A stretch of 24,000 bases of DNA, taken from Clostridia bacterium (lineage in GTDB: Bacteria > Bacillota > Clostridia > TANB77 > CAG-508). The stretch spans positions 2,076 through 26,075 of the forward strand of contig JAFWDV010000017.1 of the NCBI GenBank assembly GCA_017515985.1. The letters run 5' to 3'. Position numbers and translations under genes: made by a program. This document shows, one piece after another, positions 1,757 to 23,773 of this stretch. Positions within the stretch are counted from its first letter, which is position 1. Every line of letters starts with the position of its first letter. Below the pieces are notes generated by a model. The model made no database searches. It worked only from the letters and a program-made list of their open reading frames with translations, and was not told the origin of the DNA.

Positions 1757-3718
1757 CTAATAATCATAATCATTATCATCTATAAACAATCTATCTGAAT
1801 CAGAATCATCATACATCATCGTTTCTACCGGTTCTAAATATATTTCATCTATATCATCATTATCATAACTATATTCTCTAACTGGATACTTGTATGCACC
1901 TTGATATATAGTACTTCCTAACTCGCTTTCAATCTGACATTCAATACCGCTCTTAAAATCGCGATCATTATCACGAGCACTATTAATATTATAATATAAT
2001 TCACCGTTTTTAATCTTCTCTATAATTTGCTCCGATGTAATTCTCACAAAACCTTTTTTATCTTCCCAAATATACATAATACAATTATTCTCTGCAAAAT
2101 TATCAAAGCCACCATTAATAAATAACAATGGTTTTATTTTAACTTTATTATTTTCATCGAGAATATATAATCTATCTAGAAAGTCAACAGAATCAACTCC
2201 AAGAAACCAAAACTTGAAATTACTTAGTAAAGATCTCTTTATAGTATTATCATTTGCCATATGTGGCTCAAGAGCAAGTAGTATTCGATTAATAAGTTTA
2301 ACCTTAATTGCAAAAGATTTTCTATTTTCCAAACCATTCTCGCCACATGGATATACAAATATTCCAGGTACACATCCAGCTTCCTCAAATGATTTTAGCA
2401 TCTTCAAAACAATTTCATATTCACTTTCATCTATAGGCTCTTTTTTTAATGCCCTAATAAAGAAATCTTTATATATTCCATATTCTTTGCTTGAAAATGG
2501 TCTTTTGATTCTAGCTTTAATTCCGTTAAATTTTTTTTCTAATTGTCCAAGACAAACTTTGAGCTTTTTGAATTCACCATCTATATACACTTCTTGAATT
2601 TGTCTATTTTGTTTATCTAAAGAAATTTTTATAAAATTTGATGTCTTAAAACCCAGTTTTGATCTATCCATATCTGTTAATCGAAACGCATATTGTTCTA
2701 CACTTGCCATAAGTTCATTTTGTACTTGAGTTCCATCTGCAATGTACATACCAGCATCATTATCCAGGAACAAAACTCTTTTATGAACATGTGAATGCGA
2801 AATAAATGCTTTTATATTTACCTCATTTAATAATCTCGAATATAAGAAAGCCCATGACCTACATGCTATATTATTATTATCTAGTGTGATTTCAGCTGGA
2901 TTTTTATAGTATGTTTTATATATTTCTAGATAATTATTTTCTTTCATTGTCAAATCTCTTTGGTCCTCTATATGCATTATTTCATCATAAGCTAAATTTC
3001 TATTTAAAGCAACAAATAATTGATATGCGAGTTCAACTTGCTCTTCATTTGTTCTATTTTTCTTATTTAGCAAATCTTGAGACACTTCACTAAATATTTT
3101 AGCTTTTAGCTTATCATCTATTTCATATTTTTCATCTTTTATGCCATCAAAACTGTATTGCCTTCTTTCACAATACATCCTTAAAAGATGCATATTTCGA
3201 AGTTGTTTGTCATTTTCTGTTTTTATATTATTCTTTGTAAAGTAGTCGCATATACTTCCTTTACTTAAAACGTATTCACAAAGCTCTTCGTAATTAGTTC
3301 CTTTAATTTGAATTTTTCCGTAAAAAAATGCCTTTAATTTTTCCTCATCATTTATTAATTCTATTACAATTTTTCTAAATTTAGAATTTCTTTCAACAAA
3401 ATCTGAGTCATACTCAAAATCAAAAGAATCACTATAATCAAAACACATAAAAACCGATTGACTTATGTCTTTACATCTTTTAGCAATATTTATTTGCATT
3501 TTGTTGAATTTATATCCATGTTGTCTCAGATAATAAAAGTATTCAATTGTATAATTTGCGTATAAGTCTCCTTCGGAATAATCACAGTTTTTACATTTCT
3601 TTTTATTGTTTAATACATATCTTTTAAAACTCTCTTCATTACTTAATATTTCTCTTACAATGCTCTGCTGAATAATAAAATCTGACTGATTATTCTTTAA
3701 AAACGTTTTAATATTCAT
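1757..3718 (-). CDS. large hypothetical protein with a transglutaminase-like (Cys-His-Asp) core and acidic C-terminal tail
   Basis: 653-aa ORF with RBS GAGGAG before the ATG. The middle reads ACRSWAFLYSRLLNEVNIKAF..HVHKRVLFLDNDAGMYIADGT, matching the order and spacing of the transglutaminase-like cysteine-protease core. D/Y-rich tail DDSDSDRLFIDDNDYDY. The rest is unrecognised. Confidence 0.6.
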   Translation of the reverse strand: MNIKTFLKNNQSDFIIQQSIVREILSNEESFKRYVLNNKKKCKNCDYSEGDLYANYTIEYFYYLRQHGYKFNKMQINIAKRCKDISQSVFMCFDYSDSFDFEYDSDFVERNSKFRKIVIELINDEEKLKAFFYGKIQIKGTNYEELCEYVLSKGSICDYFTKNNIKTENDKQLRNMHLLRMYCERRQYSFDGIKDEKYEIDDKLKAKIFSEVSQDLLNKKNRTNEEQVELAYQLFVALNRNLAYDEIMHIEDQRDLTMKENNYLEIYKTYYKNPAEITLDNNNIACRSWAFLYSRLLNEVNIKAFISHSHVHKRVLFLDNDAGMYIADGTQVQNELMASVEQYAFRLTDMDRSKLGFKTSNFIKISLDKQNRQIQEVYIDGEFKKLKVCLGQLEKKFNGIKARIKRPFSSKEYGIYKDFFIRALKKEPIDESEYEIVLKMLKSFEEAGCVPGIFVYPCGENGLENRKSFAIKVKLINRILLALEPHMANDNTIKRSLLSNFKFWFLGVDSVDFLDRLYILDENNKVKIKPLLFINGGFDNFAENNCIMYIWEDKKGFVRITSEQIIEKIKNGELYYNINSARDNDRDFKSGIECQIESELGSTIYQGAYKYPVREYSYDNDDIDEIYLEPVETMMYDDSDSDRLFIDDNDYDY

Positions 3719-4939: not shown

Positions 4940-5287
4940 TTACCTACTTAACTTATATAGAGCATATTGATTAAGTGAAACTCCCTCTTCCTGTGCTTCA
5001 ATTGATAGCTGATAGTGCAATGATTTTGGTATTCTAACAACAAATTTTCCACTGTAATTCTCACTTACTATAGGCATTGGAATGCTTATATTATGTTCGA
5101 TCTTAATTTCAATCCATTCCTTCATTGCTTCCTTTAAGCTCTTATATGCTTCTTCAAAAGAATTACCAGTGCTTTGGCATCCATCGAGCTCTAAAACCTT
5201 AGCATAGAAGTAATCTCCACTTTCATCTTTTATTGGTTGAATTATATAATTGTATGGTAAATTCATATAATAATCAACATTTTTCAT
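4940..5287 (-). CDS. hicB: HicB-family type II antitoxin
   Basis: 115 aa. N-terminal HicB fold signature (YYAKVLELDGCQSTGNSFEEAYKSLKEAMKEWIE) and a C-terminal ribbon-helix-helix-like tail (GKFVVRIPKSLHYQLSIEAQEEGVSLNQYALYKL). Confidence 0.8.
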   Translation of the reverse strand: MKNVDYYMNLPYNYIIQPIKDESGDYFYAKVLELDGCQSTGNSFEEAYKSLKEAMKEWIEIKIEHNISIPMPIVSENYSGKFVVRIPKSLHYQLSIEAQEEGVSLNQYALYKLSR

Positions 5288-5584: not shown

Positions 5585-6799
5585 TTAGAAACTAATAATC
5601 TCGTTATATATATTAATTACAAAATTATCTGTCATTCCTGCTATAAAATCGATTATAGCTCTACAGTAATCTTGCTCTGTATATTTGTAGACTATCTTGT
5701 TCTTCAAGTTTGTTCCTTGTCTTTCAGTTAATTCCCAATACTTATTAAGCCATTTTCTAAATTGTAGCATTGTATCTGGATAAAACTTCTCCGCTTCTTT
5801 AAAGTTATTCTCTATATCCTCATAGCTCTCAGCATATAAACCTTTAAGAGTGTTGTAAATTCTATTAATTAAAACTCTGAAATACTCATTAGATCCATCT
5901 AAACGTTTATGCAAATAAATGTTCTTATAATTAAAAGCCTTTATTTTGTTCATTAAATTTAGTTTTTCCTCTGAGAAGCATAATCCTTTTTCTATACTAC
6001 TATTATTACATAAATCTATTATCAACTCATTAATAATATTAGGATTATTTAGAGTATCTTCGCTTTTAATATTTAGTATCTCTTTTAGCTCTTCTATATT
6101 ATCTTTAGTTAATAACTTCAAATGAATAGCATCCTCTAAGTCTCTTCCCAAGTATGAAATCTTATCGGAAATTTTTACAACGCAGCCTTCCCATGTATAT
6201 GGGTTATAATGATTCGGCATAGTATATTCTTTAGCCAAATCTATATATTCGGATCTAGGTTTAACGCAATTCTCATCAATCTCACCGCAATGAGAAATAA
6301 TACCATCACGAACTGCATATGTTAAATCAAGGTTCTTTAGATTTCCATCCTCATCTTCTAATAGCTCTATATCATCTACAAAGTGAAGACCATTTCTTTC
6401 GTGCCAGAAAGATTCACCAAGGTCTCTCTTAGCTATTTCGTTAAGTACAACTTCACCTTTATGGCCAAAAGGACTATGTCCCAAGTCATGCGCTATTGAT
6501 ATAGCTTTCGTAAGCTCTGTATTTAACCCTAGATAGTTCGCTATTGTATTACTTATAGACTCAACATAGTTAACATGCTCTATTCTTGTGCATACATGGT
6601 CACTTGCTGGTGAAAAGAATACCTGTGTTTTATGTTTTAATCTTCTATATGCATTACAATGAAGTATTCTAGTATAATCTCTAGCAAACTCACTACGAAT
6701 ATCTCCGCTTCTAGAATATAAATTTTCCTCTCTCTTAATTAAGTTCTCCCAATTAAGGCTTTGCTCTGTTGCAGCCACGCTCTTAAAACTATCTTTCAT
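5585..6799 (-). CDS. dGTP triphosphohydrolase-family HD-domain protein
   Basis: 404 aa. RSEFARDYTRILHCNAYRRLKHKTQVF, then DHVCTRIEHVNYV and AHDLGHSPFGH, the conserved N-terminal block of dGTPase-like triphosphohydrolases. RBS GGGAGG. Confidence 0.85.
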   Translation of the reverse strand: MKDSFKSVAATEQSLNWENLIKREENLYSRSGDIRSEFARDYTRILHCNAYRRLKHKTQVFFSPASDHVCTRIEHVNYVESISNTIANYLGLNTELTKAISIAHDLGHSPFGHKGEVVLNEIAKRDLGESFWHERNGLHFVDDIELLEDEDGNLKNLDLTYAVRDGIISHCGEIDENCVKPRSEYIDLAKEYTMPNHYNPYTWEGCVVKISDKISYLGRDLEDAIHLKLLTKDNIEELKEILNIKSEDTLNNPNIINELIIDLCNNSSIEKGLCFSEEKLNLMNKIKAFNYKNIYLHKRLDGSNEYFRVLINRIYNTLKGLYAESYEDIENNFKEAEKFYPDTMLQFRKWLNKYWELTERQGTNLKNKIVYKYTEQDYCRAIIDFIAGMTDNFVINIYNEIISF

Positions 6800-8088: not shown

Positions 8089-10740
8089 TTATACTGCTTT
8101 AAATTTTAGCATTTTATTGTTCTCTGCTTTTACAACTGCTTGAGCTGCTGCCAAACGTGCAATTGGAACTCTAAATGGTGAACATGATACATAAGTTAAT
8201 CCTATATTATGGCAGAACTCAACTGTTGGTGGGTTTCCTCCATGCTCTCCGCATATTCCAAGCTCTATATTTGGTCTAACTTTTTTGCTATCCTCAATAG
8301 CAAGTTTCATTAGCTTTCCAACACCTTCTTGATCAACCTTTTGGAATGGATCAGATTCAAATATTTTCTTTTCATAATAATATTTTAAGAATTTTCCAGC
8401 ATCATCACGGCTAAATCCATAAGTTAATTGAGTTAAGTCATTAGTTCCAAATGAGAAGAACTCAGCATTTTCAGCAATTTTATCTGCAATTAAGCAAGCT
8501 CTTGGTATCTCTATCATGGTTCCGATGTGATATTGTATATCACTACCGCTGTTTTTTATCATTTCATCAGCAGTTGTTTCAACTATATTTTTAACAAAAG
8601 CAAGCTCTGTTGCATCGCCTACAAGTGGAATCATTATTTCAGGAATGACCTTTGTTCCCTCATTTTTAACATTAATTGCAGCTTCTATTATTGCTTTAGT
8701 TTGCATTACTGCGATTTCTGGATATTTAACGTCTAATCTACAACCTCTGAATCCCATCATAGGATTAAATTCGTGTAAATCAAGAACAATGCTCTTAAGC
8801 TTATCATATGACATTCCCATATCATTTGCTAAATCAGCAATTTCGTTATCTTTCTTTGGTAAGAACTCATGAAGTGGTGGATCAAGTAATCTTATCGTTA
8901 CAGGATATCCTTTCATTGTTCTAAATAGCTCTTCAAAATCTCCTCTTTGCATTGGAAGAATTTTATTTAAAGCTGCCTCTCTTTGTTCAACAGTATCAGC
9001 CACAATCATTTCTCTTATAGCAGCAATTCTATCGTTTTCGAAGAACATATGCTCAGTTCTACATAGTCCTATACCTTGAGCACCGAACTCGTATGCCTTT
9101 TTAGCATCTCTTGGGTTATCAGCATTAGTACGAACCTCTAAAGTTCTTATGCCATCAGCCCATCCCATAAATGTAGCAAAATCACCTGAAACTGAAGCAT
9201 CAACAGTATCAACTTTTTGTCCATAAACAATACCCGTTGAACCATCTATTGAAATATAATCACCTTCATGGAATTGCATACCATCTTTTGTATATAAAAC
9301 TTTTTCATCGCTATTAACTGAAAGCTCTCCACATCCAGCAACACAGCATGTACCCATACCACGAGCAACAACTGCAGCATGAGATGTCATACCACCTCTA
9401 ACTGTTAAAATACCGCTACAAACAACCATACCTTCAATATCTTCAGGAGAAGTTTCCAAACGAACTAGAATAAGCTCTTTTTCACCTTGCTCAGCAAGCT
9501 CTTGTGCTCTTTCAGCAGTAAACACTATCTTACCCGTAGCAGCACCTGGTGAAGCAGGTAAACCTTTTGTAATTACCATCGCATTCTTAAGTTTATTTTT
9601 ATCAAAATCTGGGTGCAATAATTGATTTAGTTGCTCTGGGTCAACTCTAAGCATAGCTTCTCTTTCATCTATCAAACCTTCTGAAACCATATCAACTGCA
9701 ACTTTAAGAGCTGCAACTGCGGTTCTCTTAGCATTTCTTGTTTGAAGCATATAAAGTTTTCCATGCTCTATAGTAAACTCCATATCTTGCATATCTTTGT
9801 AATGTTTTTCCAATATATCAGCATATTTAGCAAATTCGTTATATGCATCAGGATTAACGTATTTAAGTGTATCCATTTCTTGAGGAGTACGAATACCAGC
9901 AACAACATCCTCGCCTTGTGCATTCATTAGATACTCACCAAATATCTCTTTAGTACCTGTAGCAGGGTTTCTAGAAAAAGCAACACCTGTACCACAGTCA
10001 TCTCCCATATTTCCAAATACCATAGATTGAACATTAACCGCTGTTCCCCAGCTTGATGGTATATCATTTAATTTTCTATATGTTATAGCTCTTGGATTAT
10101 TCCATGATCTAAACACAGCCTTAACAGCCTCATAAAGCTGCCATCTTGTATCTTGAGGGAATTCTTCGTGTAAATAATCTCTATAAATTCCCTTGAAAAC
10201 TCTAACTAAATCTTCTAAATCGTTTGCATCCATATCAGTATCAAGAGTCAATCCTCTTTGTTGTTTCTTTAAATCGATAGCATCTTCAAATAATTTTTTA
10301 GGAACTTCTCTTACAACGTCGCTATACATTTGAATAAATCTTCTATAGCTATCGTATGCAAATCTTCTATTTTTAGCAGCAAAAGCTAAAACTACTTCAT
10401 CGTTCATTCCTAAATTTAAAATCGTATCCATCATTCCAGGCATTGAAGCTCTAGCACCAGATCTTACAGATACAAGTAGAGGCTTATCTTTGCTACCAAG
10501 CTTTTTGCCGGTATAATCCTCTAAATATATAAGAGCAGAATTAATTTGCTCTACAATTTCCTCAGAAATTTGTTCATTATCGTCATAATACTTATTACAT
10601 GCTTCAGTAGTAATCGTAAATCCTTGAGGTATTGGCATACCAAGTGAAGTCATTTCAGCAAGGTTTGCTCCCTTACCACCAAGAAGCTCCTTCATACCAC
10701 TATTACCCTCTTTAAACAGGTAAACATATTTTTTATCCAT
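8089..10740 (-). CDS. ppdK: pyruvate, phosphate dikinase
   Basis: 883 aa. N-terminal GGKGANLAEM ATP-grasp block, phospho-His region GGMTSHAAVVARG, C-terminal PEP-utilising TIM barrel (GTNDLTQ, ICGE). RBS AAGGAGG. Confidence 0.95.
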   Translation of the reverse strand: MDKKYVYLFKEGNSGMKELLGGKGANLAEMTSLGMPIPQGFTITTEACNKYYDDNEQISEEIVEQINSALIYLEDYTGKKLGSKDKPLLVSVRSGARASMPGMMDTILNLGMNDEVVLAFAAKNRRFAYDSYRRFIQMYSDVVREVPKKLFEDAIDLKKQQRGLTLDTDMDANDLEDLVRVFKGIYRDYLHEEFPQDTRWQLYEAVKAVFRSWNNPRAITYRKLNDIPSSWGTAVNVQSMVFGNMGDDCGTGVAFSRNPATGTKEIFGEYLMNAQGEDVVAGIRTPQEMDTLKYVNPDAYNEFAKYADILEKHYKDMQDMEFTIEHGKLYMLQTRNAKRTAVAALKVAVDMVSEGLIDEREAMLRVDPEQLNQLLHPDFDKNKLKNAMVITKGLPASPGAATGKIVFTAERAQELAEQGEKELILVRLETSPEDIEGMVVCSGILTVRGGMTSHAAVVARGMGTCCVAGCGELSVNSDEKVLYTKDGMQFHEGDYISIDGSTGIVYGQKVDTVDASVSGDFATFMGWADGIRTLEVRTNADNPRDAKKAYEFGAQGIGLCRTEHMFFENDRIAAIREMIVADTVEQREAALNKILPMQRGDFEELFRTMKGYPVTIRLLDPPLHEFLPKKDNEIADLANDMGMSYDKLKSIVLDLHEFNPMMGFRGCRLDVKYPEIAVMQTKAIIEAAINVKNEGTKVIPEIMIPLVGDATELAFVKNIVETTADEMIKNSGSDIQYHIGTMIEIPRACLIADKIAENAEFFSFGTNDLTQLTYGFSRDDAGKFLKYYYEKKIFESDPFQKVDQEGVGKLMKLAIEDSKKVRPNIELGICGEHGGNPPTVEFCHNIGLTYVSCSPFRVPIARLAAAQAVVKAENNKMLKFKAV

Positions 10741-13102: not shown

Positions 13103-14125
13103 TTATTTTTCCTTATATTCATTATATAGCCTTCCTTTGTAGCTAATCTTTCCCACTTTAGCTAATCTACCAACTATAAAGCTCATAGGAATTTTATATC
13201 TTTTTGATACAGATAACAAATTTTCTATATTAGTATTTTTTATGATTATATCCCATACCTCATCATTTACCATTGTTTTAATAGCAAACTCATCTGCTCT
13301 TTGCTCTATCTTGTCATCTCCATCAATAATCGTTTTGCTCTTTGCTCTGTTGTAATCGCTTTTACAATGACCAAGCTCGTGGAATAGCTCAAAGTAAAAG
13401 GAATCTTTAGCAGAATAGTTTTTAGTTATATATATAGCCGGAGTATTTAATTTGACTCTAAAACAACCTCTTACTTTTGTTCCAGATAATGCTTTTTCAC
13501 ATACAAAGATAATACCATACTTATTTAGTATTTCTTGTATTTTATCGATATTTAATCCATCATTATATGAGTATTTCTTTAGCTCATATATTAAATCATC
13601 AAATTTAGAGCTTGTATATTCTCCTACATGTTGATTCTCTGAAATCTTATCACAATGAGCAATCCACAATGCAAGTTTATTGCTATCCTCTCCGCTCTTT
13701 TTAAATAAAACATTTTCCATTAAGCAATTGTTTATTTCAAAATCTTTAACTTTTAAAAAGTCTAAAATATCTATGCTATTTTGTATAGTATTTGTTTCAT
13801 CTTTAAAGTCCACCCATTTTAGCTTCTTAAGTTCATTTAAATGATATTTTTCTTTTAACATCTTTTTAATTTTATCTTCAGATCCATATTGCTTAAGTAG
13901 CTTATTTTGTATTATATTAGCATTCTCAATAGAAACAATTAATTTTGATGAAATACCAGTCAATCTCTCGATAGTAGCAGCCATCTCCAATGTAATACTT
14001 GTTTTTCCATTAATTATTTCATTCATATGTTTTTGTGTAACACCAAGTCTACTCGCAAACTCACTTTGAGATATATTATAGTATTCAAGATAATCTTTTA
14101 AATATTCTCCAAAATGTACCATCAT
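13103..14125 (-). CDS. XRE-family HTH fused to ImmA/IrrE-type (COG2856) zinc metallopeptidase
   Basis: 340 aa. N-terminal HTH ISQSEFASRLGVTQKHMNEIINGKTSITLEMAATIERLTG. C-terminal HExxH in FYFELFHELGHCKSD followed by EQRADEFA. RBS AGGAGGGAGA. Confidence 0.85.
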   Translation of the reverse strand: MMVHFGEYLKDYLEYYNISQSEFASRLGVTQKHMNEIINGKTSITLEMAATIERLTGISSKLIVSIENANIIQNKLLKQYGSEDKIKKMLKEKYHLNELKKLKWVDFKDETNTIQNSIDILDFLKVKDFEINNCLMENVLFKKSGEDSNKLALWIAHCDKISENQHVGEYTSSKFDDLIYELKKYSYNDGLNIDKIQEILNKYGIIFVCEKALSGTKVRGCFRVKLNTPAIYITKNYSAKDSFYFELFHELGHCKSDYNRAKSKTIIDGDDKIEQRADEFAIKTMVNDEVWDIIIKNTNIENLLSVSKRYKIPMSFIVGRLAKVGKISYKGRLYNEYKEK

Positions 14126-14324
14126 TCTCCCTCCTATCCATGTTATAAATAATATGTAAGCTATCTTGCATTACATCTTTCATACTTTCAGAAGAAATAA
14201 GAAACTGCTCTATTTTCTCTAATAGAATCATCTCTCTATTCATATGTTTATTTTTTAATTTAGCTCTGTAATCTTTTGTATATGATTTTGTTTTTATTAT
14301 CTTGATCTTTATCACCTCAGCCAT
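14085..14324 (-). CDS. small upstream ORF (79 aa), possible divergent or degenerate RelE/YafQ-like toxin partner
   Basis: Overlaps the HTH gene by 41 nt. The N-terminal half (KTKSYTKDYRAKLKNK...LLEKIEQFL) resembles the beta-strand/helix start of RelE/YafQ-family toxins, but I cannot find the C-terminal catalytic half. No SD. A TGtTATAAT box ends 7 nt before the ATG, so it may be leaderless. Confidence 0.3.
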   Translation of the reverse strand: MAEVIKIKIIKTKSYTKDYRAKLKNKHMNREMILLEKIEQFLISSESMKDVMQDSLHIIYNMDRRENDGTFWRIFKRLS

Positions 14325-14373
14325 TTATTATATTATAACATTTTAGGTTATAATATACAATATTAATTACAAT

Positions 14374-14400
14374 ATAGGGGCAATAAAATATTGCCCCTAT
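14374..14400. terminator. perfect 12-bp palindromic hairpin downstream of the PBECR4-like gene
   Basis: ataggggcaata aaa tattgcccctat. Weak U-tracts on both strands. Confidence 0.45.
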
Positions 14401-14473
14401 AACATTTTATGGATATTCAAGTATAAATTAAATTAATTTGAAAACGATATTCGTCACACTAATGTTATAATGG

Positions 14474-15175
14474 TTAATCTGATTCTAAATTATAATTATT
14501 TATTTTTGAATTTAAATTTCTGTTTTTTGAATAAAGATTCTTGATATCAATTTCATTCAATATGTGTTGGGTACAAAATATTTCCTCTAAACTCATACAT
14601 TTTTTTATATATGTAATCTCTTTATATTTTTTATCGGTGATAGTTTTTTTTAATATTGCAAGTATATTACATTTACTGATAATTACATCTCTCATATCAG
14701 TATTTAATGCTGTATTCGGCACATAAACATCTTTTTTTACTGCCTTAACAAAACCCATGCAACAATTGATTCCTCCAATTAACTTATCAGTTTGTAGATA
14801 TACTTTAGAATTATCGTAATCACCCACTATATTTGCATTTTTATCTATTTTCATTAAATATGGTAATACTTGTAATTTTAGATTGGTAGTATGGTCTTTA
14901 CATTCTATTTTATACTTATTCAAACTGACAGATCCTCTTTTTAATAAATTATAAAAGCTAAAACTATTTAATGCATTATTGTTACTATCTATAATTATTA
15001 CTCCTGTTAGATGGGCAAAACTTGATTTTGGAAAATAGAGCTCTATCTTCTCGATATTCATTTTATCATTCCTCATGATAAGTAATACTTTCTTGTTCTT
15101 TAGGTTTTCATCATATAACTTCAAACATTTGTATATTATATTCAATATTTGCTTTTGACCAGATGTATTATTCAA
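14474..15175 (-). CDS. PBECR4-like protein (phage Barnase-EndoU-ColicinE5/D-RelE-like nuclease family 4), putative RNase toxin
   Basis: 233 aa. TTG start 6 nt after AGGAGG. The block pattern FPKSSFAHLTGV ... YLQTDKLIGGINCCMGFVK..VYVPNTALNTDMRD matches my recollection of the PBECR4 signature (F.HLTG ... TD.L.G...GF...Y.PNT.L..D.R). Needs HMM confirmation. Confidence 0.6.
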   Translation of the reverse strand: MNNTSGQKQILNIIYKCLKLYDENLKNKKVLLIMRNDKMNIEKIELYFPKSSFAHLTGVIIIDSNNNALNSFSFYNLLKRGSVSLNKYKIECKDHTTNLKLQVLPYLMKIDKNANIVGDYDNSKVYLQTDKLIGGINCCMGFVKAVKKDVYVPNTALNTDMRDVIISKCNILAILKKTITDKKYKEITYIKKCMSLEEIFCTQHILNEIDIKNLYSKNRNLNSKINNYNLESD

Positions 15176-15556: not shown

Positions 15557-16282
15557 CTAATACCCGACTGCAGTTGCTCCATATTCTGCCTGGCTAGCTG
15601 TAAAGCCCTCATATTTTAGCTGATCTATTAAACCGCTTCTTGAAAAAGACATAAGATCTAAATACGATTTAGCTTTCTTAGCAGCTTGCTCATTCCAGTC
15701 TGCTCCACTATTTGCAGCACCATACTCTGCCTCTTCTTTTGAAAACCCTTCGTATTCAAGTTGTCCAACTAATCCTTTTTCAGAAAATGCCATAACTTTT
15801 AAATACTGTTTGGCTTTTGCTACTGCATTTTTCTGACCCATGGTTGTACTATTGTTGGTTGATGTCGTTGGTTCGCTCTTTGTTTGCTCGCTTTTAGAGC
15901 TTTCTTCGTTTTTAGGCTCTGTAGCGGTAACCGTTGATTTTGTCTCACTTTTGCTATTTGATTTTTCTACTTTAGTTGTTTCCTGCTTAGGCTCCTGCTT
16001 ATTATTCTTTTCTTCTTCATTATTGCTCTGATCTGTTGCATTATTATTATTTTCATTTGTTTGTTCAGAATTCTCTTCACCATTTACTTGAGCATATAGC
16101 AAATCATATTGCTGTTTTACATCACTATATTTTGCCTCTAGCTCGTTATAGCTTTGCATCATTTTCTTTTTATCGGAACTATACTTATAATTAAATATCA
16201 AAAAAATTCCAATAAAAATACATGTTATTCCCAATATAATAACCCAAAATAAACTGTTTTTTAAAATATTACTTTTTTTCAT
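15557..16282 (-). CDS. membrane-anchored protein with two C-terminal Ltp-type (host cell surface-exposed lipoprotein) repeats
   Basis: Start at ATG 16282 (MKKSNIL) after AGGAGG. N-terminal TM helix, coiled and low-complexity N/E/K/S/T linker, then a duplicated module AKAKQYLKVMAFSEKGLVGQLEYEGFSKEEAEYG / KKAKSYLDLMSFSRSGLIDQLKYEGFTASQAEYG typical of Pfam Lipoprotein_Ltp. Confidence 0.8.
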   Translation of the reverse strand: MKKSNILKNSLFWVIILGITCIFIGIFLIFNYKYSSDKKKMMQSYNELEAKYSDVKQQYDLLYAQVNGEENSEQTNENNNNATDQSNNEEEKNNKQEPKQETTKVEKSNSKSETKSTVTATEPKNEESSKSEQTKSEPTTSTNNSTTMGQKNAVAKAKQYLKVMAFSEKGLVGQLEYEGFSKEEAEYGAANSGADWNEQAAKKAKSYLDLMSFSRSGLIDQLKYEGFTASQAEYGATAVGY

Positions 16283-16318
16283 AACAAACCTCCTTTTATT
16301 TTTCATTATTGTTTAGTA

Positions 16319-16687
16319 TTATGGTCGACATCTTGAGCATGCATCATAACCTCTTGAAATTGCATTGGATTTACTGATTGCATGACAACTTCTTCTAAGA
16401 TACTGACATCCTGAACGATGATATTTGGACCCTGTATTCGTTATATATACGGTCTGAGAATCTTCATCCTCAAAATTACTATATGTTAGATTATTTTCTT
16501 TCACGGTATTTGAATAATATCTATTTTTACTAGTATTTTCCGACGTATTGTATGTATAACTGTTATTATTATATATTTTATTCTCTTTTTTCGAAGATTG
16601 AAAAGGATTTAATACTGCCAAACATATAAGAGCAACATATACTATTAATCCTATTATTCCACTCCAACCATTACCTCTTTTACCCAT
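16319..16687 (-). CDS. membrane-anchored small protein with C-terminal KYH-x3-C ... C-x2-C metal-binding-type motif
   Basis: 122 aa. TM helix IIGLIVYVALICLAVL, N/S/T/Y-rich linker, C-terminus VYITNTGSKYHRSGCQYLRRSCHAISKSNAISRGYDACSRCRP. Confidence 0.6.
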   Translation of the reverse strand: MGKRGNGWSGIIGLIVYVALICLAVLNPFQSSKKENKIYNNNSYTYNTSENTSKNRYYSNTVKENNLTYSNFEDEDSQTVYITNTGSKYHRSGCQYLRRSCHAISKSNAISRGYDACSRCRP

Positions 16688-18092: not shown

Positions 18093-18238
18093 AAAAAGCT
18101 TCGCCTCTGTATGTGAGACTAAGCTTTTTAGTGTTAGTTATTTGGTAGGCGTGGCCTTCTCCTACATCTCTCGGGTATATATACCCTATCAGTACCATCG
18201 GCGTGTGGTTGCCACGAAATTTACCACCTCAAATAACT
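18093..18238 (-). ncRNA. candidate structured small RNA (about 145 nt) with its own promoter-like boxes and terminator; class unknown
   Basis: A GC-enriched island in an AT-rich spacer. P1 is AGUUAUUUG..GUGG (18238-18224) with CUAC C AAAUAACU (18149-18136). P2 is CGUGGC/GCCACG. An internal hairpin is GGGUA-UAUA-UACCC. The terminator is gcttagtctc acataca gaggcgaagc plus TTTTT (18129-18093). G.U pairs occur only if it is read on the minus strand. Confidence 0.45.
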
Positions 18239-18390: not shown

Positions 18391-19791
18391 TTAGTCGGTA
18401 TTACTTATCCATCCTTTCAAAATCTGCACATCTTCGCTGTTGCTATTATCTATATAGCCAAATAAAGTATCCTGAATTCCTTTATATATCTTACATCTGT
18501 AGTTTTCAGGTATTCGTGAAAAAATATTATTTTCTTGAGCCAAATTAGTTACTGGACAAGTACCACAAAATGGCATATATACACATGAATGACACTTATT
18601 TAGACACTCTAAACACGATGAAACACATAGAGCTTTTGTTGTATCCGATTTAACTAAATCGTTATAATTATTCTCAAAAACATTTCCAATTTTAAAGCTA
18701 TCATCACCCATTTCTGATAACATTCTTCCTTCATCACATGTATATACATTTCCATCGTAATAGTATGCCATTTGTCCTATTGCTCCACCACATGGCGACC
18801 TAAGTTCCATATAATTTATAGGTTCATTTGCTAATATTTTCTTCAAAAAAATACAACTGTGTCTCTCAGATATATTTATTCCTTCTTTATTCTTCTCTAT
18901 AATATACGAGAGAATATTTTTATAAAACTCAATAAATTCTTCAGCAGAATAACCTATTTTTTCCCAATTCCTATCCGCCTTTCCCAGTTGAGTCAATGGT
19001 CTTACAAATAGATCTTTAAATCCTAAATTTATATATTCATCTACAATTTCTTTGTATTTATTTAAACTGTACCTAGTTGTTGTTTGTATAGCAGAAACTG
19101 GAATATTATGTTCTTGTAACTGTTTTATTTTTTTGATAGTTTCATTATATGAATCGTTATTTGCATATGGTCTATTTTTATTCTGTAGCTCCCTATTGCC
19201 ATCAATTGATGTACATACAATCAAATTGTTATCTTTAATAAATTGAATCATGTCATCCGTTAGAAGAGTTAGGTTTGATACTAGATTATATTCTATATAT
19301 TTTCCATTAGCATTTTCATTTGCGTATTTTACAATAAATTTAATAACATCAAAATTCAATAATGGCTCTCCACCTTGAAACTCAATGGTAATATACTTAG
19401 TTGGCGATTGAAGAGCAATGTCAACACATCTCTTAGCAGTATCTATATCCATATTAAAGTTTTCTTTTTGTGATAAATTTCCAGCTTGGCAATATACACA
19501 ATTAAAATTACAATTCTTTGTAACTACAATTATATGTAATGCAGTCGGAGTAAATATATAGTTTTTCTGTTTTCTTACTTCCAAATAAGATTTATTGGCA
19601 AAAATTTCAGAATTTTCGTCGTATATAAATCGCTTCTGTATAAGTTGCTCTTTAATATCATTCTCTAGCTCTTCCTTCATCATTAATTTCTTAAAATTAT
19701 CTTTACTCAAGAACTGATATTTACCTAAATCGTTTGTAATTAAATAATTATTTTCACGCTCTTCAAAATTGAAGTAATTTAACTTGTACAT
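18391..19791 (-). CDS. hxsB: His-Xaa-Ser system radical SAM/SPASM maturase (HxsB-like)
   Basis: 466 aa. CNFNCVYCQAG (Cx3Cx2C), FQGGEPLL, Cys-rich SPASM-type C-terminus CGGAIGQMAYYYDGNVYTCDEG ... CLECLNKCHSCVYMPFCGTCP. Genomic context with hxsA/C/D. Confidence 0.8.
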   Translation of the reverse strand: MYKLNYFNFEERENNYLITNDLGKYQFLSKDNFKKLMMKEELENDIKEQLIQKRFIYDENSEIFANKSYLEVRKQKNYIFTPTALHIIVVTKNCNFNCVYCQAGNLSQKENFNMDIDTAKRCVDIALQSPTKYITIEFQGGEPLLNFDVIKFIVKYANENANGKYIEYNLVSNLTLLTDDMIQFIKDNNLIVCTSIDGNRELQNKNRPYANNDSYNETIKKIKQLQEHNIPVSAIQTTTRYSLNKYKEIVDEYINLGFKDLFVRPLTQLGKADRNWEKIGYSAEEFIEFYKNILSYIIEKNKEGINISERHSCIFLKKILANEPINYMELRSPCGGAIGQMAYYYDGNVYTCDEGRMLSEMGDDSFKIGNVFENNYNDLVKSDTTKALCVSSCLECLNKCHSCVYMPFCGTCPVTNLAQENNIFSRIPENYRCKIYKGIQDTLFGYIDNSNSEDVQILKGWISNTD

Positions 19792-19800
19792 ATTAATCTC

Positions 19801-20961
19801 CTATTTTATTGGATTTACTTTTATTTCTTTCATATTAATTGTAGAAAAGAAAAATCCTCCACAATAATCTTTCGCTTTACATTCCATACATTCATCCTTA
19901 AATCTTACTTTGTAATCACTAATGCTCTTCTTAGCAATACTATATAATCTATTATCAATTTTGCACAATGGGAAATTATATAAACTAGTTTGTATTCCAG
20001 CCTTTAATAGTGTTAATACCGGATCAAATAAATAACTTTTTACCTCATCGAAATTTACCCATACATTATCTTTGTTTTTGAATGCATTTCCACTCATCTC
20101 TAAAGCCATAATATTAACAAATTTAACGTTTTTCAGCTCCTTCGCTATAAAAGTAGCTATATTGGATAAATATTTATAGTTTTGCTTTAATACAACAATT
20201 CTAATTTCTATCTCAATATTCCTTTGTAATAAATTCTTTATACCCATAACTGCTTCTTCAAAACTTCCTTCTGCTCGAGTAATACTATCATGTAATATTG
20301 CATTATCCGCATATATTGGAATTGCGATTTGAATCTTTGAAGGTGCATTTTTTACAAATTCGTTTGAAAAATTTATATCTGAAAAAATTCTCCCATTAGA
20401 CAATAACAAAAAATTTGTTTCAGGAAGACATTCTTTACATTCTCTAACAACATCAACTAAACCATACTTTAATATTCCTGGCTCTCCTCCAGTAATGCAT
20501 ATATTTTCCGTATCATCTGGAATACACCTTATTTGTTTTCTTATTTTGTTAATATCTGGCACATAATGATTATTCCTAACTTGGTCTGAATCCGGACACA
20601 TTATACAGTTTGAATTGCATTGATTGGTAACTTGAATAAAATTGTCGCCCGAATCATCTCTATATAGAACCCTAATATATGTATCATCAATCATCTCTAT
20701 AACATCATTGTTTATGAGTGTTTCCACATTTGTAATATCCGTTGCATAATTAATATTATCTAAGTCATATGCTGGTATCCAATCAATAAAAATATATCCC
20801 AAATATCCATCTTCATACAAATCTATATGCTCTTTATCTATTATTTGTATATAATTGGATTTATTATCAGTATTATCATTTTTTACTAATCTTCCAATTA
20901 TGTAATAATCTTCACTTTTAACACTTATTTTTCCTTTTAATATAAATGGTCTATTTTTCAT
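19801..20961 (-). CDS. hxsC: His-Xaa-Ser system radical SAM maturase (HxsC-like)
   Basis: About 386 aa from the ATG 7 nt after GGAGA. CNSNCIMCPD (Cx3Cx2C), ITGGEPG, short C-terminal Cys cluster CMECKAKDYCGG. About 110-aa N-terminal extension before the radical SAM core. Confidence 0.8.
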   Translation of the reverse strand: MKNRPFILKGKISVKSEDYYIIGRLVKNDNTDNKSNYIQIIDKEHIDLYEDGYLGYIFIDWIPAYDLDNINYATDITNVETLINNDVIEMIDDTYIRVLYRDDSGDNFIQVTNQCNSNCIMCPDSDQVRNNHYVPDINKIRKQIRCIPDDTENICITGGEPGILKYGLVDVVRECKECLPETNFLLLSNGRIFSDINFSNEFVKNAPSKIQIAIPIYADNAILHDSITRAEGSFEEAVMGIKNLLQRNIEIEIRIVVLKQNYKYLSNIATFIAKELKNVKFVNIMALEMSGNAFKNKDNVWVNFDEVKSYLFDPVLTLLKAGIQTSLYNFPLCKIDNRLYSIAKKSISDYKVRFKDECMECKAKDYCGGFFFSTINMKEIKVNPIK

Positions 20962-20971
20962 ATACATTCTC

Positions 20972-22009
20972 CTATAGAATTACTTTTATAACTAAATATA
21001 TTGTTGTTCCAACAAAAATAAATGGAGCAAATGGCATATGTCTCACTATTACAATCTGTTTTCTTCCTTTTTTTGTTCTACTCCATCTTTTTATACTATC
21101 AATTTCCGCTTCTGTAATTCTTGAATCTGTAGTTTCTGTTGTCTTTTCTGGTAACCCCTTTACCTTCGATCCATAGAACATTAATATAGTCTCAAAAGCA
21201 AGTATCATACCTGGTTTTAAATCATCAACATTAATTTCTTCATAGTTGTATTTTTCTGATATCTGCCTAAATAAAAATAAAATCAAAACAAGAAAAATCA
21301 TTTTTATGTTAATAGAATATATAACAAATCCATATAAAAAAGTATATATAATATTTAATAATATAGCTATTATCATTATGATTACATAGTTTCTTCGTTT
21401 TGAAACAGCTCTATATAAAAAAGTAATAAATAGCATATTACAAATCAGCAATAGAGCACCATTATATCTATTAAATTCTGGAAAAAATGTGCTTATAATA
21501 TTATTAATCAGCATAATAGAGAAATATGCCGTAAAGTATTGTATGGAAAAGTCTATCCAATTTATTCTAGATAATCTAACCAAAGAAGTTTTTGTAAATT
21601 TTTCTCTATCTTTAATCCATAATATTACGGTTTCAATAGCTACATATATAAAAGCACTACTAAATATCATAATTAATAAAAAAACAGATGGAAATATATT
21701 TTCTTTTGGCGCTTCATATATTGAGAAAGGGATAATGAACGATATAACCCAAAATAACTTTGCATCTCCTGCTGCCCATATTTTAAAATAGTAAAATAAG
21801 AAGGATAGTATCAGTGTTATGATGTTATTTATGATGTGACTAACTATAAATTCTGTTTCAATCTCCTTATAAAATACTATGTATATGCATGAACTAACAG
21901 CCAATGAAACTAGTACAATTTTATTGTATATCTTCTTGCTCTTTATATCTGTTATGGACGCATATACACATAATAAAACAACAATAATACTTTGCAAATA
22001 AACTAACAT
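20972..22009 (-). CDS. A24-family (prepilin peptidase / FlaK / TadV-like) membrane aspartic peptidase with an inserted soluble domain
   Basis: 345 aa, polytopic. First Asp in ASITDIKSKKIYN (D21), second in WAAGDAKLF (D82, GxGD-type). C-terminal MPFAPFIFVG as in prepilin peptidases. A roughly 70-aa hydrophilic insert precedes the last helix. Overlaps hxsD by 7 nt. Confidence 0.7.
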   Translation of the reverse strand: MLVYLQSIIVVLLCVYASITDIKSKKIYNKIVLVSLAVSSCIYIVFYKEIETEFIVSHIINNIITLILSFLFYYFKIWAAGDAKLFWVISFIIPFSIYEAPKENIFPSVFLLIMIFSSAFIYVAIETVILWIKDREKFTKTSLVRLSRINWIDFSIQYFTAYFSIMLINNIISTFFPEFNRYNGALLLICNMLFITFLYRAVSKRRNYVIIMIIAILLNIIYTFLYGFVIYSINIKMIFLVLILFLFRQISEKYNYEEINVDDLKPGMILAFETILMFYGSKVKGLPEKTTETTDSRITEAEIDSIKRWSRTKKGRKQIVIVRHMPFAPFIFVGTTIYLVIKVIL

Positions 22010-22425
22010 TCTTGTCCTCTATTCTTATCAAACCAATTTACAGCAATTTCATTTATATCATGATTTTTGTCATTGTTATCGTAATCAACAGTATTTTCGT
22101 CTGTATCTATACAGGTAGTATATAATGCCCTACCTAAAATTAATTCCCTTATGTTCTTTGTTTGTATCATAATGTCATATCTTAATGACTCGTTAAAAAG
22201 CTCATTATATAACTTTTTAATGTACTCATCTATATTAGTATTCTGATCCTTTAAATATATTTTCACAAGAATAATATTTTCATCAAAATGATCAAGCATA
22301 TAGTAGCAGTCTTCTATATAATTAAAAAGTGCCTTTTTTATAACTACTAAGTTATATATTCTTTCGTCTAAGTATAGCTCAATAAGATTTTCTTCTTTAA
22401 CTATATTAATTTTACTATTATTCAT
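22003..22425 (-). CDS. hxsD: His-Xaa-Ser system accessory protein (HxsD-like)
   Basis: 140 aa, soluble. The segment LYNELFNESLRYDI resembles the LLNDYxLRE motif I recall as the hallmark of the HxsD family. Position between hxsA and the maturases. Confidence 0.55.
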   Translation of the reverse strand: MNNSKINIVKEENLIELYLDERIYNLVVIKKALFNYIEDCYYMLDHFDENIILVKIYLKDQNTNIDEYIKKLYNELFNESLRYDIMIQTKNIRELILGRALYTTCIDTDENTVDYDNNDKNHDINEIAVNWFDKNRGQEC

Positions 22426-22438
22426 TTATTAATCTCCT

Positions 22439-22861
22439 CTATGGCATTGGTGTTTTAAGTGGTATTTGTGGTTCATTAAAGTCTGGAATTGTTTCTACAG
22501 GTTTCGTCGTTGTCACGCTATTATTTGTTGAGTTTCCTGAAGTAATGCCACTATTAGAGCTACTATAATGAGTTGAACTGCTGTTACCATGTGTTGATGA
22601 ACCACTACTATGGCTTTGATGGCTTCGATGACTTTGGTGACTGTAATGTCCTCCGGAACTTCCAGATGAATGTGAAGAATGAGATCTATGCGATGAATGC
22701 GATCTATGGGCTGCCAAAACTTCATCTGCAAATATTATTCCAGCTAATAATACCAATGATCCAACTGTTAATATTTTCCCCCTACTTATATTACCTTCTT
22801 CCTCATATAAGAAATCAGATATTTTTCTATTTACCTTAGATAAAAATTTTTCATTTTCCAT
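22439..22861 (-). CDS. hxsA: His-Xaa-Ser repeat precursor protein (HxsA-like)
   Basis: 140 aa. Charged N-terminus, one hydrophobic helix, then HRS-HSS-HRS-HSS-HSS GSSGG HYS-HQS-HRS-HQS-HSS ... HYS (11 HxS triplets, nt 22562-22708), then an S/T/N-rich and Pro-rich tail. RBS AGGAGG. Confidence 0.8.
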   Translation of the reverse strand: MENEKFLSKVNRKISDFLYEEEGNISRGKILTVGSLVLLAGIIFADEVLAAHRSHSSHRSHSSHSSGSSGGHYSHQSHRSHQSHSSGSSTHGNSSSTHYSSSNSGITSGNSTNNSVTTTKPVETIPDFNEPQIPLKTPMP

Positions 22862-22870
22862 AGATTCCTC

Positions 22871-23671
22871 CTACTTTGAATACTTGTTATTTGTCCAAGT
22901 TCCAGTATAACTTTTCCCATTTTTAGTATATGTACCTTTTCCATTAAACTTATTATCTGAAAAACTACCTTTATATACATCTCCATCTGAAAATGTGTAC
23001 GTACCTTCTCCATTCATACAATCATCCTTAAAACTTCCTGTGTACTTATCTCCATTTTTAAATGTATATGTTCCCGTTCCAGACATCTTATTGTTTTCGA
23101 AGCTTCCATCGTATGAATCACCTTCAGCAAATGTAATTTTACCTTTTCCGCTTATCTTATCATCTTTCCACTCACCTTCATATTTTGTACCATCTTTCCA
23201 TGTAAAAGTTCCATTTCCCTCTCTTTTATTATCATTAAACTCTCCGCTATACTCTCCATTCTCAAAAGATGGTACCGTTGGAGTAACTGGCTCTATAGAA
23301 TCTTCTGTATTAGTACTTTCTTCACTTTGAGTTTCATAAACGTCATTGTTATCCGCTATTACTCCTGAATTAGATGTTGTTGCATCATTGCTAGGTATTC
23401 CATTTATAAAAGTGAAAAATAATATCGTAAAAATAAAATATTTACCTATTTTTAAATATTTTATCCCATTCAATATTTTTCTAACTTGTGGTAATAATAT
23501 TATTCCAGCAAGCATTATTGCTATTGATGGTCCAGCAGCTTCTTTGCTATATACAAGACCACTCAAAATAAAAAAAACAGAAAATACATATGAAACAACG
23601 GTTAATACAATATTTTCCTTAGATTTATTTTCATCTACAATTCTTTTTCCTTGGTTATAATCACTTCTCAT
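22871..23671 (-). CDS. membrane-anchored MORN-repeat protein
   Basis: 266 aa. Three N-terminal hydrophobic helices, acidic linker, then about 6 tandem MORN units (YSGEFNDNKREGNGTFTWKDGTKYEGEWKDDKISGKG...YTGSFKDDCMNGEGTYTF...). Stop lies 9 nt before the hxsA start. Confidence 0.85.
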   Translation of the reverse strand: MRSDYNQGKRIVDENKSKENIVLTVVSYVFSVFFILSGLVYSKEAAGPSIAIMLAGIILLPQVRKILNGIKYLKIGKYFIFTILFFTFINGIPSNDATTSNSGVIADNNDVYETQSEESTNTEDSIEPVTPTVPSFENGEYSGEFNDNKREGNGTFTWKDGTKYEGEWKDDKISGKGKITFAEGDSYDGSFENNKMSGTGTYTFKNGDKYTGSFKDDCMNGEGTYTFSDGDVYKGSFSDNKFNGKGTYTKNGKSYTGTWTNNKYSK

Positions 23672-23712
23672 TAAAATCTCCTTAAATAGTAATATACACT
23701 TTTAGTTAGAAT

Positions 23713-23773
23713 ATCAAAAAATGTCGAAATATGCAAATTATTTTTATCTGCATATTTCGACATTTTTCGACTT
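23713..23773. repeat. 61-nt palindromic repeat, copy 2
   Basis: atcaaaaaatgtcgaaatatgcaa-12 nt-tgcatatttcgacatttttcgactt. 19-bp stem (23717-23735 / 23749-23767). Same orientation as copy 1. Sits between the transglutaminase-like gene stop and the MORN gene. Confidence 0.9.

Follow-up and report, generated by a model that had tools for sequence, protein, structure and literature searches.

The closest described relative of the locus considered here is the four-gene His-Xaa-Ser (HXS) operon of Escherichia coli, a broad antiphage system that requires each of its four genes (Li et al., Nat Commun 2026, PMC13128918). This operon restricts 110 of 113 coliphages and leaves adsorption unblocked. In its effector, HxsA, five HxS repeats are accompanied by a signal peptide and a required peptidoglycan-binding domain. 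The N-terminal cleavage of HxsA depends on HxsB, HxsC and HxsD and persists when the signal peptide is replaced. A second cleavage, not made by signal peptidase, is required; the protease that cleaves HxsA was not identified, and host factors are possibly needed. HxsC binds HxsD, a modification of +8 Da is present at the SHRSS motif of HxsA, and the mature protein is periplasmic, cell-associated, binds DNA and blocks phage DNA entry. In the HxsA-based survey of the same study, 99.7% of systems were from Pseudomonadota, 99.8% had four genes and 99.6% had the order D-B-C-A, and the text makes no mention of proteases, Gram-positives or Firmicutes (PMC13128918). The present analysis concerns a cluster of six genes in a window of 24,000 nucleotides (the whole stretch of DNA that was analysed) from a Clostridia bacterium (assembly GCA_017515985.1, contig JAFWDV010000017.1, positions 2,076 to 26,075). 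On balance, the cluster is probably an HxsA3-type HXS system in a form belonging to monoderm gut Clostridia, with protease processing of the effector and tethering by a MORN-repeat protein. An earlier note on this DNA had described the system as experimentally uncharacterised, a claim outdated by the demonstration that E. coli HXS is antiphage. Characterisation of the parent system makes the locus less novel than the earlier note had assumed, and what is new is the conserved six-gene form of gut Clostridia.

Membership of the Hxs families was judged by the curated NCBIfam cut-offs (TIGR03978, 370 bits; TIGR03977, 267.9; TIGR03976, 50; NF038309, 65), all four of which are exceeded (Table 1). 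Residues 4-462 of HxsB span positions 1-466 of its model, end to end, and the runner-up model, PapB, reaches 149 bits against a cut-off of 340. The next-best models for the radical SAM proteins are PapB, nif11-peptide maturase and CcpM, and no rival SPASM family came near its own cut-off in the NCBIfam profile search. HxsD only just passes its cut-off, and PF27806 (HxsD) is also assigned in the precomputed Pfam tables. The proposal of the earlier note that these genes form a His-Xaa-Ser system therefore holds, with HxsB and HxsC above their thresholds and unrelated SPASM families far below theirs, and it is practically beyond doubt that the cluster is an Hxs system. What did not hold was the assignment of the precursor to canonical HxsA, since it scores 22.4 bits with TIGR03979 against a cut-off of 121.65, in the repeat region only, and belongs instead to the separately modelled HxsA3 type. 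NCBIfam HxsA3 (NF038309, with sister models HxsA2, HxsA4 and HxsC4) covers only the first 81 positions of the precursor, and its cut-off is passed by the window precursor and by all Clostridial homologues tested. The name HxsA3 is already used by NCBI for such proteins in metagenome-assembled genomes (MAGs) of Clostridia, Oscillospiraceae and Blautia, and in the literature that was searched no paper mentions it.

All six open reading frames (ORFs) lie head-to-tail on the minus strand at 18391-23671 of the window, in the order MORN-A3-D-A24-C-B, with gaps from MORN to hxsB of 9, 13, -7, 10 (or 4) and 9 nt. A GGAG-type Shine-Dalgarno site precedes each of the six genes, and its spacing at hxsC favours the ATG at 20961, giving 386 amino acids (aa), over that at 20967 (388 aa). 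The G+C content of the window is about 30%. The terminator-like hairpin at the end of the upstream gene is the 5' boundary of the cluster, and a gap of about 400 nt, containing an independent small-RNA gene, follows hxsB at the 3' side. The six co-directional genes, whose minus-strand orientation the earlier note had not given, were recovered with the lengths and gaps described earlier, as were the quoted motifs LFNESLRYD, CNSNCIMC, CNFNCVYC and CLECLNKCHSCVYMPFCGTCP, all of which are found in the proteins.

Table 1. Positions, strands and supporting matches of the Hxs cluster and of other features of the window
Feature	Position	Strand	Basis
MORN-repeat membrane protein, 266 aa	22871..23671	minus	Pfam MORN 111 bits, 5 repeats
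HxsA3 precursor/effector, 140 aa	22439..22861	minus	NF038309 108.4 bits
HxsA3 leader, residues 1-27, conserved motif DFLYEEEGNISR	22781..22861	minus	alignment of 54
HxsA3 hydrophobic segment GKILTVGSLVLLAGIIFADEVLA, residues 28-50	22712..22780	minus	
HxS array HRSHSSHRSHSSHSS-GSSGG-HYSHQSHRSHQSHSS, residues 52-86	22604..22708	minus	
HxsA3 C-terminal tail ETIPDFNEPQIPLKTPMP, residues 123-140	22442..22495	minus	
HxsD, 140 aa	22003..22425	minus	TIGR03976 54.2 bits
A24-family (GxGD) aspartyl membrane protease-like protein, 345 aa	20972..22009	minus	PF01478 41.9 bits
HxsC radical SAM maturase, 386 aa (388 aa from 20967)	19801..20961	minus	TIGR03977 314.1 bits
HxsB radical SAM/SPASM maturase, 466 aa	18391..19791	minus	TIGR03978 512.5 bits
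Terminator-like hairpin, 20-bp stem and T-run, end of upstream gene	23719..23765	minus	scan and sequence read
Putative promoter TTGATA...TGTATATT, after terminator hairpin	~23690-23718		assigned by eye only
'Skipping-rope' RNA, in the gap 3' of hxsB	18137-18237	minus	RF02924 56.4 bits (gathering 36.7)
122-aa membrane protein, Cys-rich end YHRSGCQYL...CSRCRP	16319-16687	minus	no family match
249-aa membrane protein, two Ltp repeats, ~2 kb downstream of cluster	15557-16306	minus	PF07553 102.8 bits
Helix-turn-helix (HTH) + M78-peptidase protein, beside PBECR4 nuclease	13103-15175	minus	PD-Lambda-2_B-like 88.8 bits
Defence-type dGTPase	5585-6799	minus	PADLOC PDLC02374 186 bits
HicB antitoxin, no evident HicA partner	4940-5287	minus	
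653-aa ORF	1757-3718	minus	no Pfam/PADLOC match

The likeness to E. coli HXS extends beyond HxsB, HxsC and HxsD, which exceed the same equivalog cut-offs in both systems, to an exported precursor with an array opening (A/G)HRSHSSH, N-terminal processing and an envelope-retained effector, the processing and retention being predicted for the Clostridial form. The differences lie in the precursor and in the additional genes. The conserved leader of HxsA3 precedes its hydrophobic segment, where HxsA has a spacer that follows a short signal peptide. HxsA3 of the window has 11 HxS repeats (family median 13) in place of five, and lacks the peptidoglycan-binding domain, no Pfam domain of any kind having been found on the window protein. 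The canonical arrangement is seen in an Aeromonas plasmid HxsA, in which a short Sec signal is followed by some 35 spacer residues, the array (AGHRSHRSHSS..., AGHRSHRSHSSHRSHSSHRSHYSG) and a peptidoglycan-binding-type domain. The conserved part before the array would thus lie on the cytoplasmic side in HxsA3 and after the signal peptide in HxsA. The A24-like protease and the MORN protein are extra, the gene order is MORN-A3-D-A24-C-B or D-A24-C-B-MORN-A3 as against D-B-C-A, and the host is a monoderm without a periplasm.

The six-gene form recurs in surveys seeded with HxsB, with the peptidase and with the precursor. An HxsB-seeded survey gave sixteen loci from species-representative genomes, five of them from Clostridia (Clostridia MAGs, Acutalibacteraceae and the isolate Lachnospiraceae bacterium XPB1003). 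The precursors of these five loci all passed the HxsA3 cut-off, and an A24-like gene lay between hxsD and hxsC in every one, with a MORN gene in four. Searching with the peptidase gave 274 homologues, nearly all of the best 120 of the 274 being about 345 aa long, and the same six genes were present in all four distinct neighbourhoods examined. When 1.84 billion cluster representatives (50% identity) were searched, 214 matched at E<=1e-30, and among the 150 of these listed most were about 340-350 aa with nearly full-length alignment. A metagenome scan seeded with the peptidase alignment found 315 relatives, from which 78 loci at 30-63% identity were retrieved; counts are over the 69 distinct peptidase sequences with enough flank. 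In these the peptidase gene has hxsD upstream in 62/62, hxsC downstream in 53/54 and hxsB in 44/45, and the 32 loci with full context comprise 19 with the order MORN-A3-D-A24-C-B, nine with D-A24-C-B-MORN-A3, two with D-A24-C-B-A3 and two that are disrupted. An HxsA3-seeded search gave 136 homologues, some named HxsA3 by NCBI, and the full gene set in two of three informative contexts. The earlier note had counted the peptidase and MORN genes as part of the system, and this conserved co-occurrence across loci strongly supports that membership. The protease is therefore a core component of the clade and MORN a near-constant partner of the precursor, and it is very highly probable that the six-gene form is a real, conserved variant.

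Outside Clostridia, the loci of the HxsB-seeded survey (from a gammaproteobacterial MAG, Saccharibacteria, Myxococcota, Gracilibacteria and a Spirochaete) have HxsA4-like precursors, and the peptidase profile HMM matched none of them except the Spirochaete locus. In the latter (Spirochaetes MAG, L008, 8921-13479) a 377-aa A24-like family member, scoring 238 bits, is encoded on the opposite strand. The HxsA4-like precursors of L008 and of the Gracilibacteria loci L010 and L012-L014 have His-Gly-Ser repeats and a leader motif, F-[LI]-T-[SD]-E-[ES]-G-[KR]-I, in common with HxsA3.

Some individual Clostridial loci depart from the common form. One locus otherwise identical to the window (L017, 9043-10195) has hxsC split into two ORFs, and another (L021, 5100-5279 and 6001-7029) has an HxsA3 of 59 aa, cut short where the array begins, and a peptidase in which Asn replaces the GxGD Asp; such decay may represent pseudogenisation or assembly errors in repeats. 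In a Blautia sp. MAG (JBAMPZ010000009.1; L104, 7462-8393) an orphan MORN-HxsA3 pair has a serine recombinase and a PDDEXK/AAA protein as neighbours. It is either what remains of a mobile element or a pair whose maturases are encoded at another site. Two divergent loci (L105, 3313-3573; L106, 8852-9073) have a small ORF (86 and 73 aa, no Pfam match) between hxsD and the peptidase gene, for which the window has no room because these two genes overlap by 7 nt. A 7.5-kb human-faecal contig labelled 'UNVERIFIED: Bacteriophage sp.' (MT837156.1; L103), the sole match of this type in a phage collection, is essentially one Hxs cluster of the order D-A24-C-B-MORN-A3. Its phage label is probably wrong, or else the cluster is able to ride a mobile element; the contig was rejected as evidence of phage carriage, being simply an Hxs cluster, and a scan of viral contigs found no HxsB relatives.

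The anatomy of the precursor was derived from an alignment of 54 distinct HxsA3 sequences, with array and site counts taken over 53. Their common plan is a variable start, a leader, basic residues, a hydrophobic segment, an acidic patch, two small residues and the array. The leader has the consensus [DN]F[LI]Y[DE]EEGNI[STP]R, in which G23 is invariant; it is predicted to be cytoplasmic and is likely to be the sequence recognised by the maturases. The hydrophobic segment is about 21 residues long in the family, with G34 invariant, and ends at a small-x-small site like those of signal peptidase I (V48-L-A50↓A51-H52), two small residues standing immediately before the first array His in 53/53 distinct homologues. 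As the earlier note had described, the window precursor has two runs of five HxS triplets (residues 52-66 and 72-86) and a single triplet at residue 98, eleven in all; among 10,000 shuffles of its own residues none reached a run of at least five, the longest being three. The arrays of homologues always open with H(R/S)SHSSH and have a median of 13 triplets. Both runs in the window close with SHSSGS, similar to the SHRSS site modified in E. coli HxsA, and SH[SR]SG is present in 27/53 homologues, often closing the first run. Beyond the array there is a Ser/Thr/Pro-rich linker and a tail with the motif P-x-F-x-x-P-Q-x-P-x-x-T-P, kept in loci that share the gene order of the window. This tail may dock to the MORN protein; the correlation of the motif with MORN presence was not used as evidence, being confounded by phylogeny because all loci with the gene order of the window have both. 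The predicted mature region contains 12 His and 28 Ser in 90 residues.

The maturases have the expected motifs, with CNFNCVYC at residues 94-101 and a seven-Cys SPASM region at 389-412 of HxsB, and CNSNCIMC at 117-124 and a C-terminal C360-x2-C363-x5-C369 in HxsC (388-aa numbering), whose gene adjoins hxsB. In HxsD, LFNESLRYD corresponds to the LLNDYxLRE-type motif of the family, and R82, the Arg of the LRxx motif, is invariant across 24 aligned homologues. The AlphaFold2 model of HxsD (pLDDT 72) places a four-stranded sheet against one long helix, and its structure matches are weak (all E>=0.007), to Rpb11-like subunits and ExsC/CesT-like secretion chaperones. A role for HxsD as a PqqD-like RRE is unsupported, as the fold search gave only weak, unrelated matches.

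The fourth gene encodes a membrane protein of about ten transmembrane (TM) helices. It has catalytic-type D21 and AAGD82, residues 255-325 form a soluble, basic insert of some 70 aa, and a PFAPF helix lies at the C-terminus. Its match to Pfam PF01478 covers residues 8-117 (gathering threshold 26.5 bits), no NCBIfam model matched it or the MORN protein, and its homologues are annotated by NCBI as plain 'prepilin peptidase'. A helix-1 Asp, a GxGD Asp and a C-terminal PFAPF are hallmarks of the A24 GxGD proteases PilD and FlaK. In alignments of 44-49 sequences D21 is invariant within the helix-1 motif T-D21-x-K-x-x-x-I-x-N, and in the second motif, W-A-A-G81-D82-x-K-L (thus AxGD and not GxGD), G81 is invariant and D82 is present in at least 90%, one member having Asn. 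The protease thus looks active, as judged from its conserved residues. The AlphaFold model (pLDDT 80, pTM 0.71) also has about ten helices, and the positive-inside rule, with the N-terminus outside, would put both catalytic Asp residues, as well as the basic insert, on the cytoplasmic side. With the A24 peptidases PilD, TadV/CpaA and FlaK the protein shares the Pfam domain, the TM1 Asp and (G/A)xGD Asp, the PF(A/G)PF helix and the predicted topology of the substrate, a cytoplasmic leader followed by a hydrophobic segment. It differs from them in its size (345 aa, about 10 TM), its conserved basic insert and the lack of a PilD-type N-terminal/methyltransferase region, in a candidate substrate without K/R-G↓hydrophobic-xxx-E, and in the position of its gene inside a radical SAM maturation operon.

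HxsA3 is the only conserved protein of the operon that is shaped for a cut at the cytoplasmic end of a membrane segment. The MORN protein is unlikely to be the substrate, because the N-termini of MORN proteins are unconserved and their anchor types differ. A prepilin-type cleavage, R-G28↓K-I-L, does not hold across the family and was rejected on that ground: loci with one gene order have G ahead of the hydrophobic segment, and those with the other have N, S or E. Owing to this variation no cut site can be named. The invariant G23 and G34 are candidate sites, on the strength of their conservation.

The MORN protein of the window consists of three N-terminal hydrophobic segments, an acidic proline-rich linker and five MORN repeats (PF02493), and its homologues at other loci have 4-5 repeats. 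Where present, its gene lies immediately upstream of HxsA3 in both gene orders. Its anchor varies between three TM segments (the window), a single TM segment or signal-anchor, a signal peptide (L084) and a lipobox (L073), and this variety of anchors places the repeat domain outside the membrane. For seven distinct precursors there is no MORN gene alongside, and six of these terminate in another module. In L071 this is a choline-binding-type repeat (Pfam Choline_bind_2, 27.4 against 27 bits, the only Pfam match), with a similar C-terminal extension in L085; in L097, L099 and L101 it is a C-terminal hydrophobic helix or TM segment with a KKK tail, and in L005, the locus of Lachnospiraceae bacterium XPB1003, it consists of other repeats. 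The seventh, L075, is on a short contig with upstream context insufficient to judge. The simplest reading is that all of these modules retain the effector at the cell surface, with MORN acting in trans.

In the proposed mechanism, HxsA3 is made with the parts seen in its sequence: a leader on the cytoplasmic side, one hydrophobic segment, an array of roughly 11 HxS repeats, a Ser/Thr/Pro-rich linker and a tail. HxsB and HxsC, with HxsD, would recognise the leader in the cytoplasm and modify the array, probably at the terminal SH(S/R)SG repeat, a position suggested by the +8 Da carried by SHRSS in E. coli. The hydrophobic segment would carry the array across the membrane, and the A24-like protease would cut near or within the cytoplasmic end of this segment, at G23 or G34, so that the leader is removed. 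Leader removal is a known activity of prepilin peptidases. Signal peptidase I might also cut at the small-x-small site before the first His. MORN would then hold the His-rich effector against the outside of the membrane or within the wall zone, taking over from the peptidoglycan-binding domain, a step supported by the choline-binding-type repeats or C-terminal TM anchors of HxsA3 proteins that lack MORN. By extrapolation from E. coli HXS, the effector would hinder phage DNA entry. An antiphage role like that of E. coli HXS is fairly probable, by analogy through homology (about 35% identity) and context. Processing of HxsA3 by the A24-like enzyme is an evenly balanced proposition, and tethering of the effector by MORN is plausible but falls somewhat short of that. 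As a whole, the idea that an antiphage effector matured by radical SAM enzymes has its leader removed by a recruited, dedicated GxGD protease of the prepilin-peptidase family, and with MORN would form a His-rich barrier outside the monoderm membrane, is offered only tentatively.

Several observations weigh against this reading. The antiphage evidence comes from E. coli HXS only, the HxsA3 type being known from genes alone, and with only some 35% identity between this HxsB and that of proteobacteria, function could differ. The 2023 release of PADLOC contains no Hxs model and thus provides no independent defence-system call for the cluster; with the six proteins it gave only weak, generic pVip matches to the radical SAM domains. 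Capsule and wall-polysaccharide genes often take the place of defence genes at the flanks, and no hxsB, hxsC, hxsD or peptidase gene was found within 8 kb of the orphan Blautia pair. With regard to the protease, the top PDB structure match, FlaK (3s0x), has a probability of 0.94 and a TMt of 0.52 but a weak E of 0.67, and a PDB sequence search gave only one spurious weak match. The classical prepilin cleavage motif is absent from the 54 aligned HxsA3 sequences, and no pilin, ATPase, secretin or secretion genes were found in any neighbourhood examined. The leader motif, as [DE]E[ES]G[NKR]I[ST], is also present in HxsA4-type precursors from other phyla, including those of Gracilibacteria and the gammaproteobacterial MAG, where the A24-like gene is absent, so it was rejected as a protease-specific recognition signal. 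The canonical signal peptidase I site alone could account for release of the array.

This last point leads to an unlikely alternative, although the one that survives best, in which the system is of the HXS type and the A24-like protein either clears the signal-peptide remnant or uses its insert to dock or export HxsC-HxsD-HxsA3. Remnant clearance is known from eukaryotic signal peptide peptidase, another GxGD protease. In favour of this alternative are a signal-peptidase-I-type site directly before the array in every homologue counted, a classical G(-1) prepilin motif that is unconserved, and HxsA4-type systems that share the leader motif and mostly have no protease. The conserved basic cytoplasmic insert, missing from ordinary A24 enzymes, is also in keeping with it. 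Nevertheless, the catalytic Asp motifs are kept down to about 30% identity, which argues for real proteolysis, the glycines near the cytoplasmic end of the segment are invariant, and E. coli HxsA itself requires a second cleavage that signal peptidase does not make.

A quite improbable explanation is that the product is a secreted, radical-SAM-modified His-rich peptide, acting in metal binding (as a metallophore or in surface buffering) or as a bacteriocin and not in defence. The His and Ser content of the mature region would suit Ni, Zn or Cu chelation, yet a metal-binding product, raised as a possibility in the earlier note, found no support in the analysis, and conserved transporter, immunity and metal-uptake genes were not seen nearby. 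The maturases do belong to the SPASM peptide-maturase superfamily, as their next-best models indicate, and a defence role is known from the E. coli type with none shown in Gram-positives; but the homologous four-gene system is experimentally antiphage with a cell-associated effector, and wall-binding repeats, membrane anchors or a tethered MORN partner on HxsA3 argue for retention over release. Very improbable is a role in cell-envelope biogenesis or maintenance (wall or capsule organisation) of which the A24-like and MORN proteins would be a reflection, for although capsule or wall-polysaccharide genes recur at the flanks, these may represent shared synteny of related genomes or the usual variability of surface-polysaccharide regions, and the patchy presence of the cluster among related MAGs, its decay in strains (L017, L021) and its position beside mobile or defence genes are traits of accessory defence.

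The surroundings of the cluster in the window are consistent with defence or mobile DNA. The skipping-rope RNA has a promoter-like site close to consensus on one side (18274-18245) and a weak terminator on the other (18119-18103). The motif is of unknown function (Weinberg et al. 2017, PMC5737381). This RNA was rejected as a part of the system, being missing from nine other Hxs loci, and is probably unrelated. In the window, the Ltp-repeat protein is a second putative blocker of DNA entry, by analogy with the superinfection-exclusion lipoprotein Ltp from Streptococcus phage TP-J34, which prevents the injection of DNA. The Ltp/Sie-type injection blockers of Gram-positives are tethered extracellular proteins acting at the DNA-entry step, the role predicted here for HxsA3 with MORN; they differ in being unmodified lipoproteins, usually prophage-encoded and with no Hxs homology, whereas the HxsA3 effector would need radical SAM maturation. 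The HTH-M78 protein and its neighbour PBECR4, a Barnase/EndoU/RelE-like nuclease, may form a two-gene defence or toxin module, and the content of the stretch flanking the PPDK gene (8089-10740) suggests an accessory island. At other loci, an AAA_21 and RloB pair adjoins the cluster (L022), and flanking genes encode Wzz/CpsD-like proteins (9 loci), CpsB-like phosphatases (5), LCP proteins (4), flippases and glycosyltransferases (L020, L021, L029, L033, L041 and others). Cas9 is adjacent to the cluster in four loci. This pattern, together with the strain decay, fits an accessory, defence-type element without proving one.

Few defence systems are reported to target the entry of phage DNA, and HXS is one of them. 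The 2026 description left the HxsA protease, the export route and the modification chemistry unexplained, and the present locus supplies candidates for processing and anchoring. To our knowledge this would be the first link of an A24-family protease with radical SAM peptide or protein maturation, and a literature search for the two together found nothing. The approximately 70 distinct relatives make this a widespread form in gut Clostridia, and show that the system reaches bacteria without a periplasm. If the proposed mechanism is true, it would represent a Gram-positive solution to the 'periplasmic' interception of phage DNA and would point to the type of enzyme behind the cleavage of HxsA in E. 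coli. The host range of gut phages in Clostridia, Lachnospiraceae and Oscillospiraceae may thus reflect an unrecognised block to entry.

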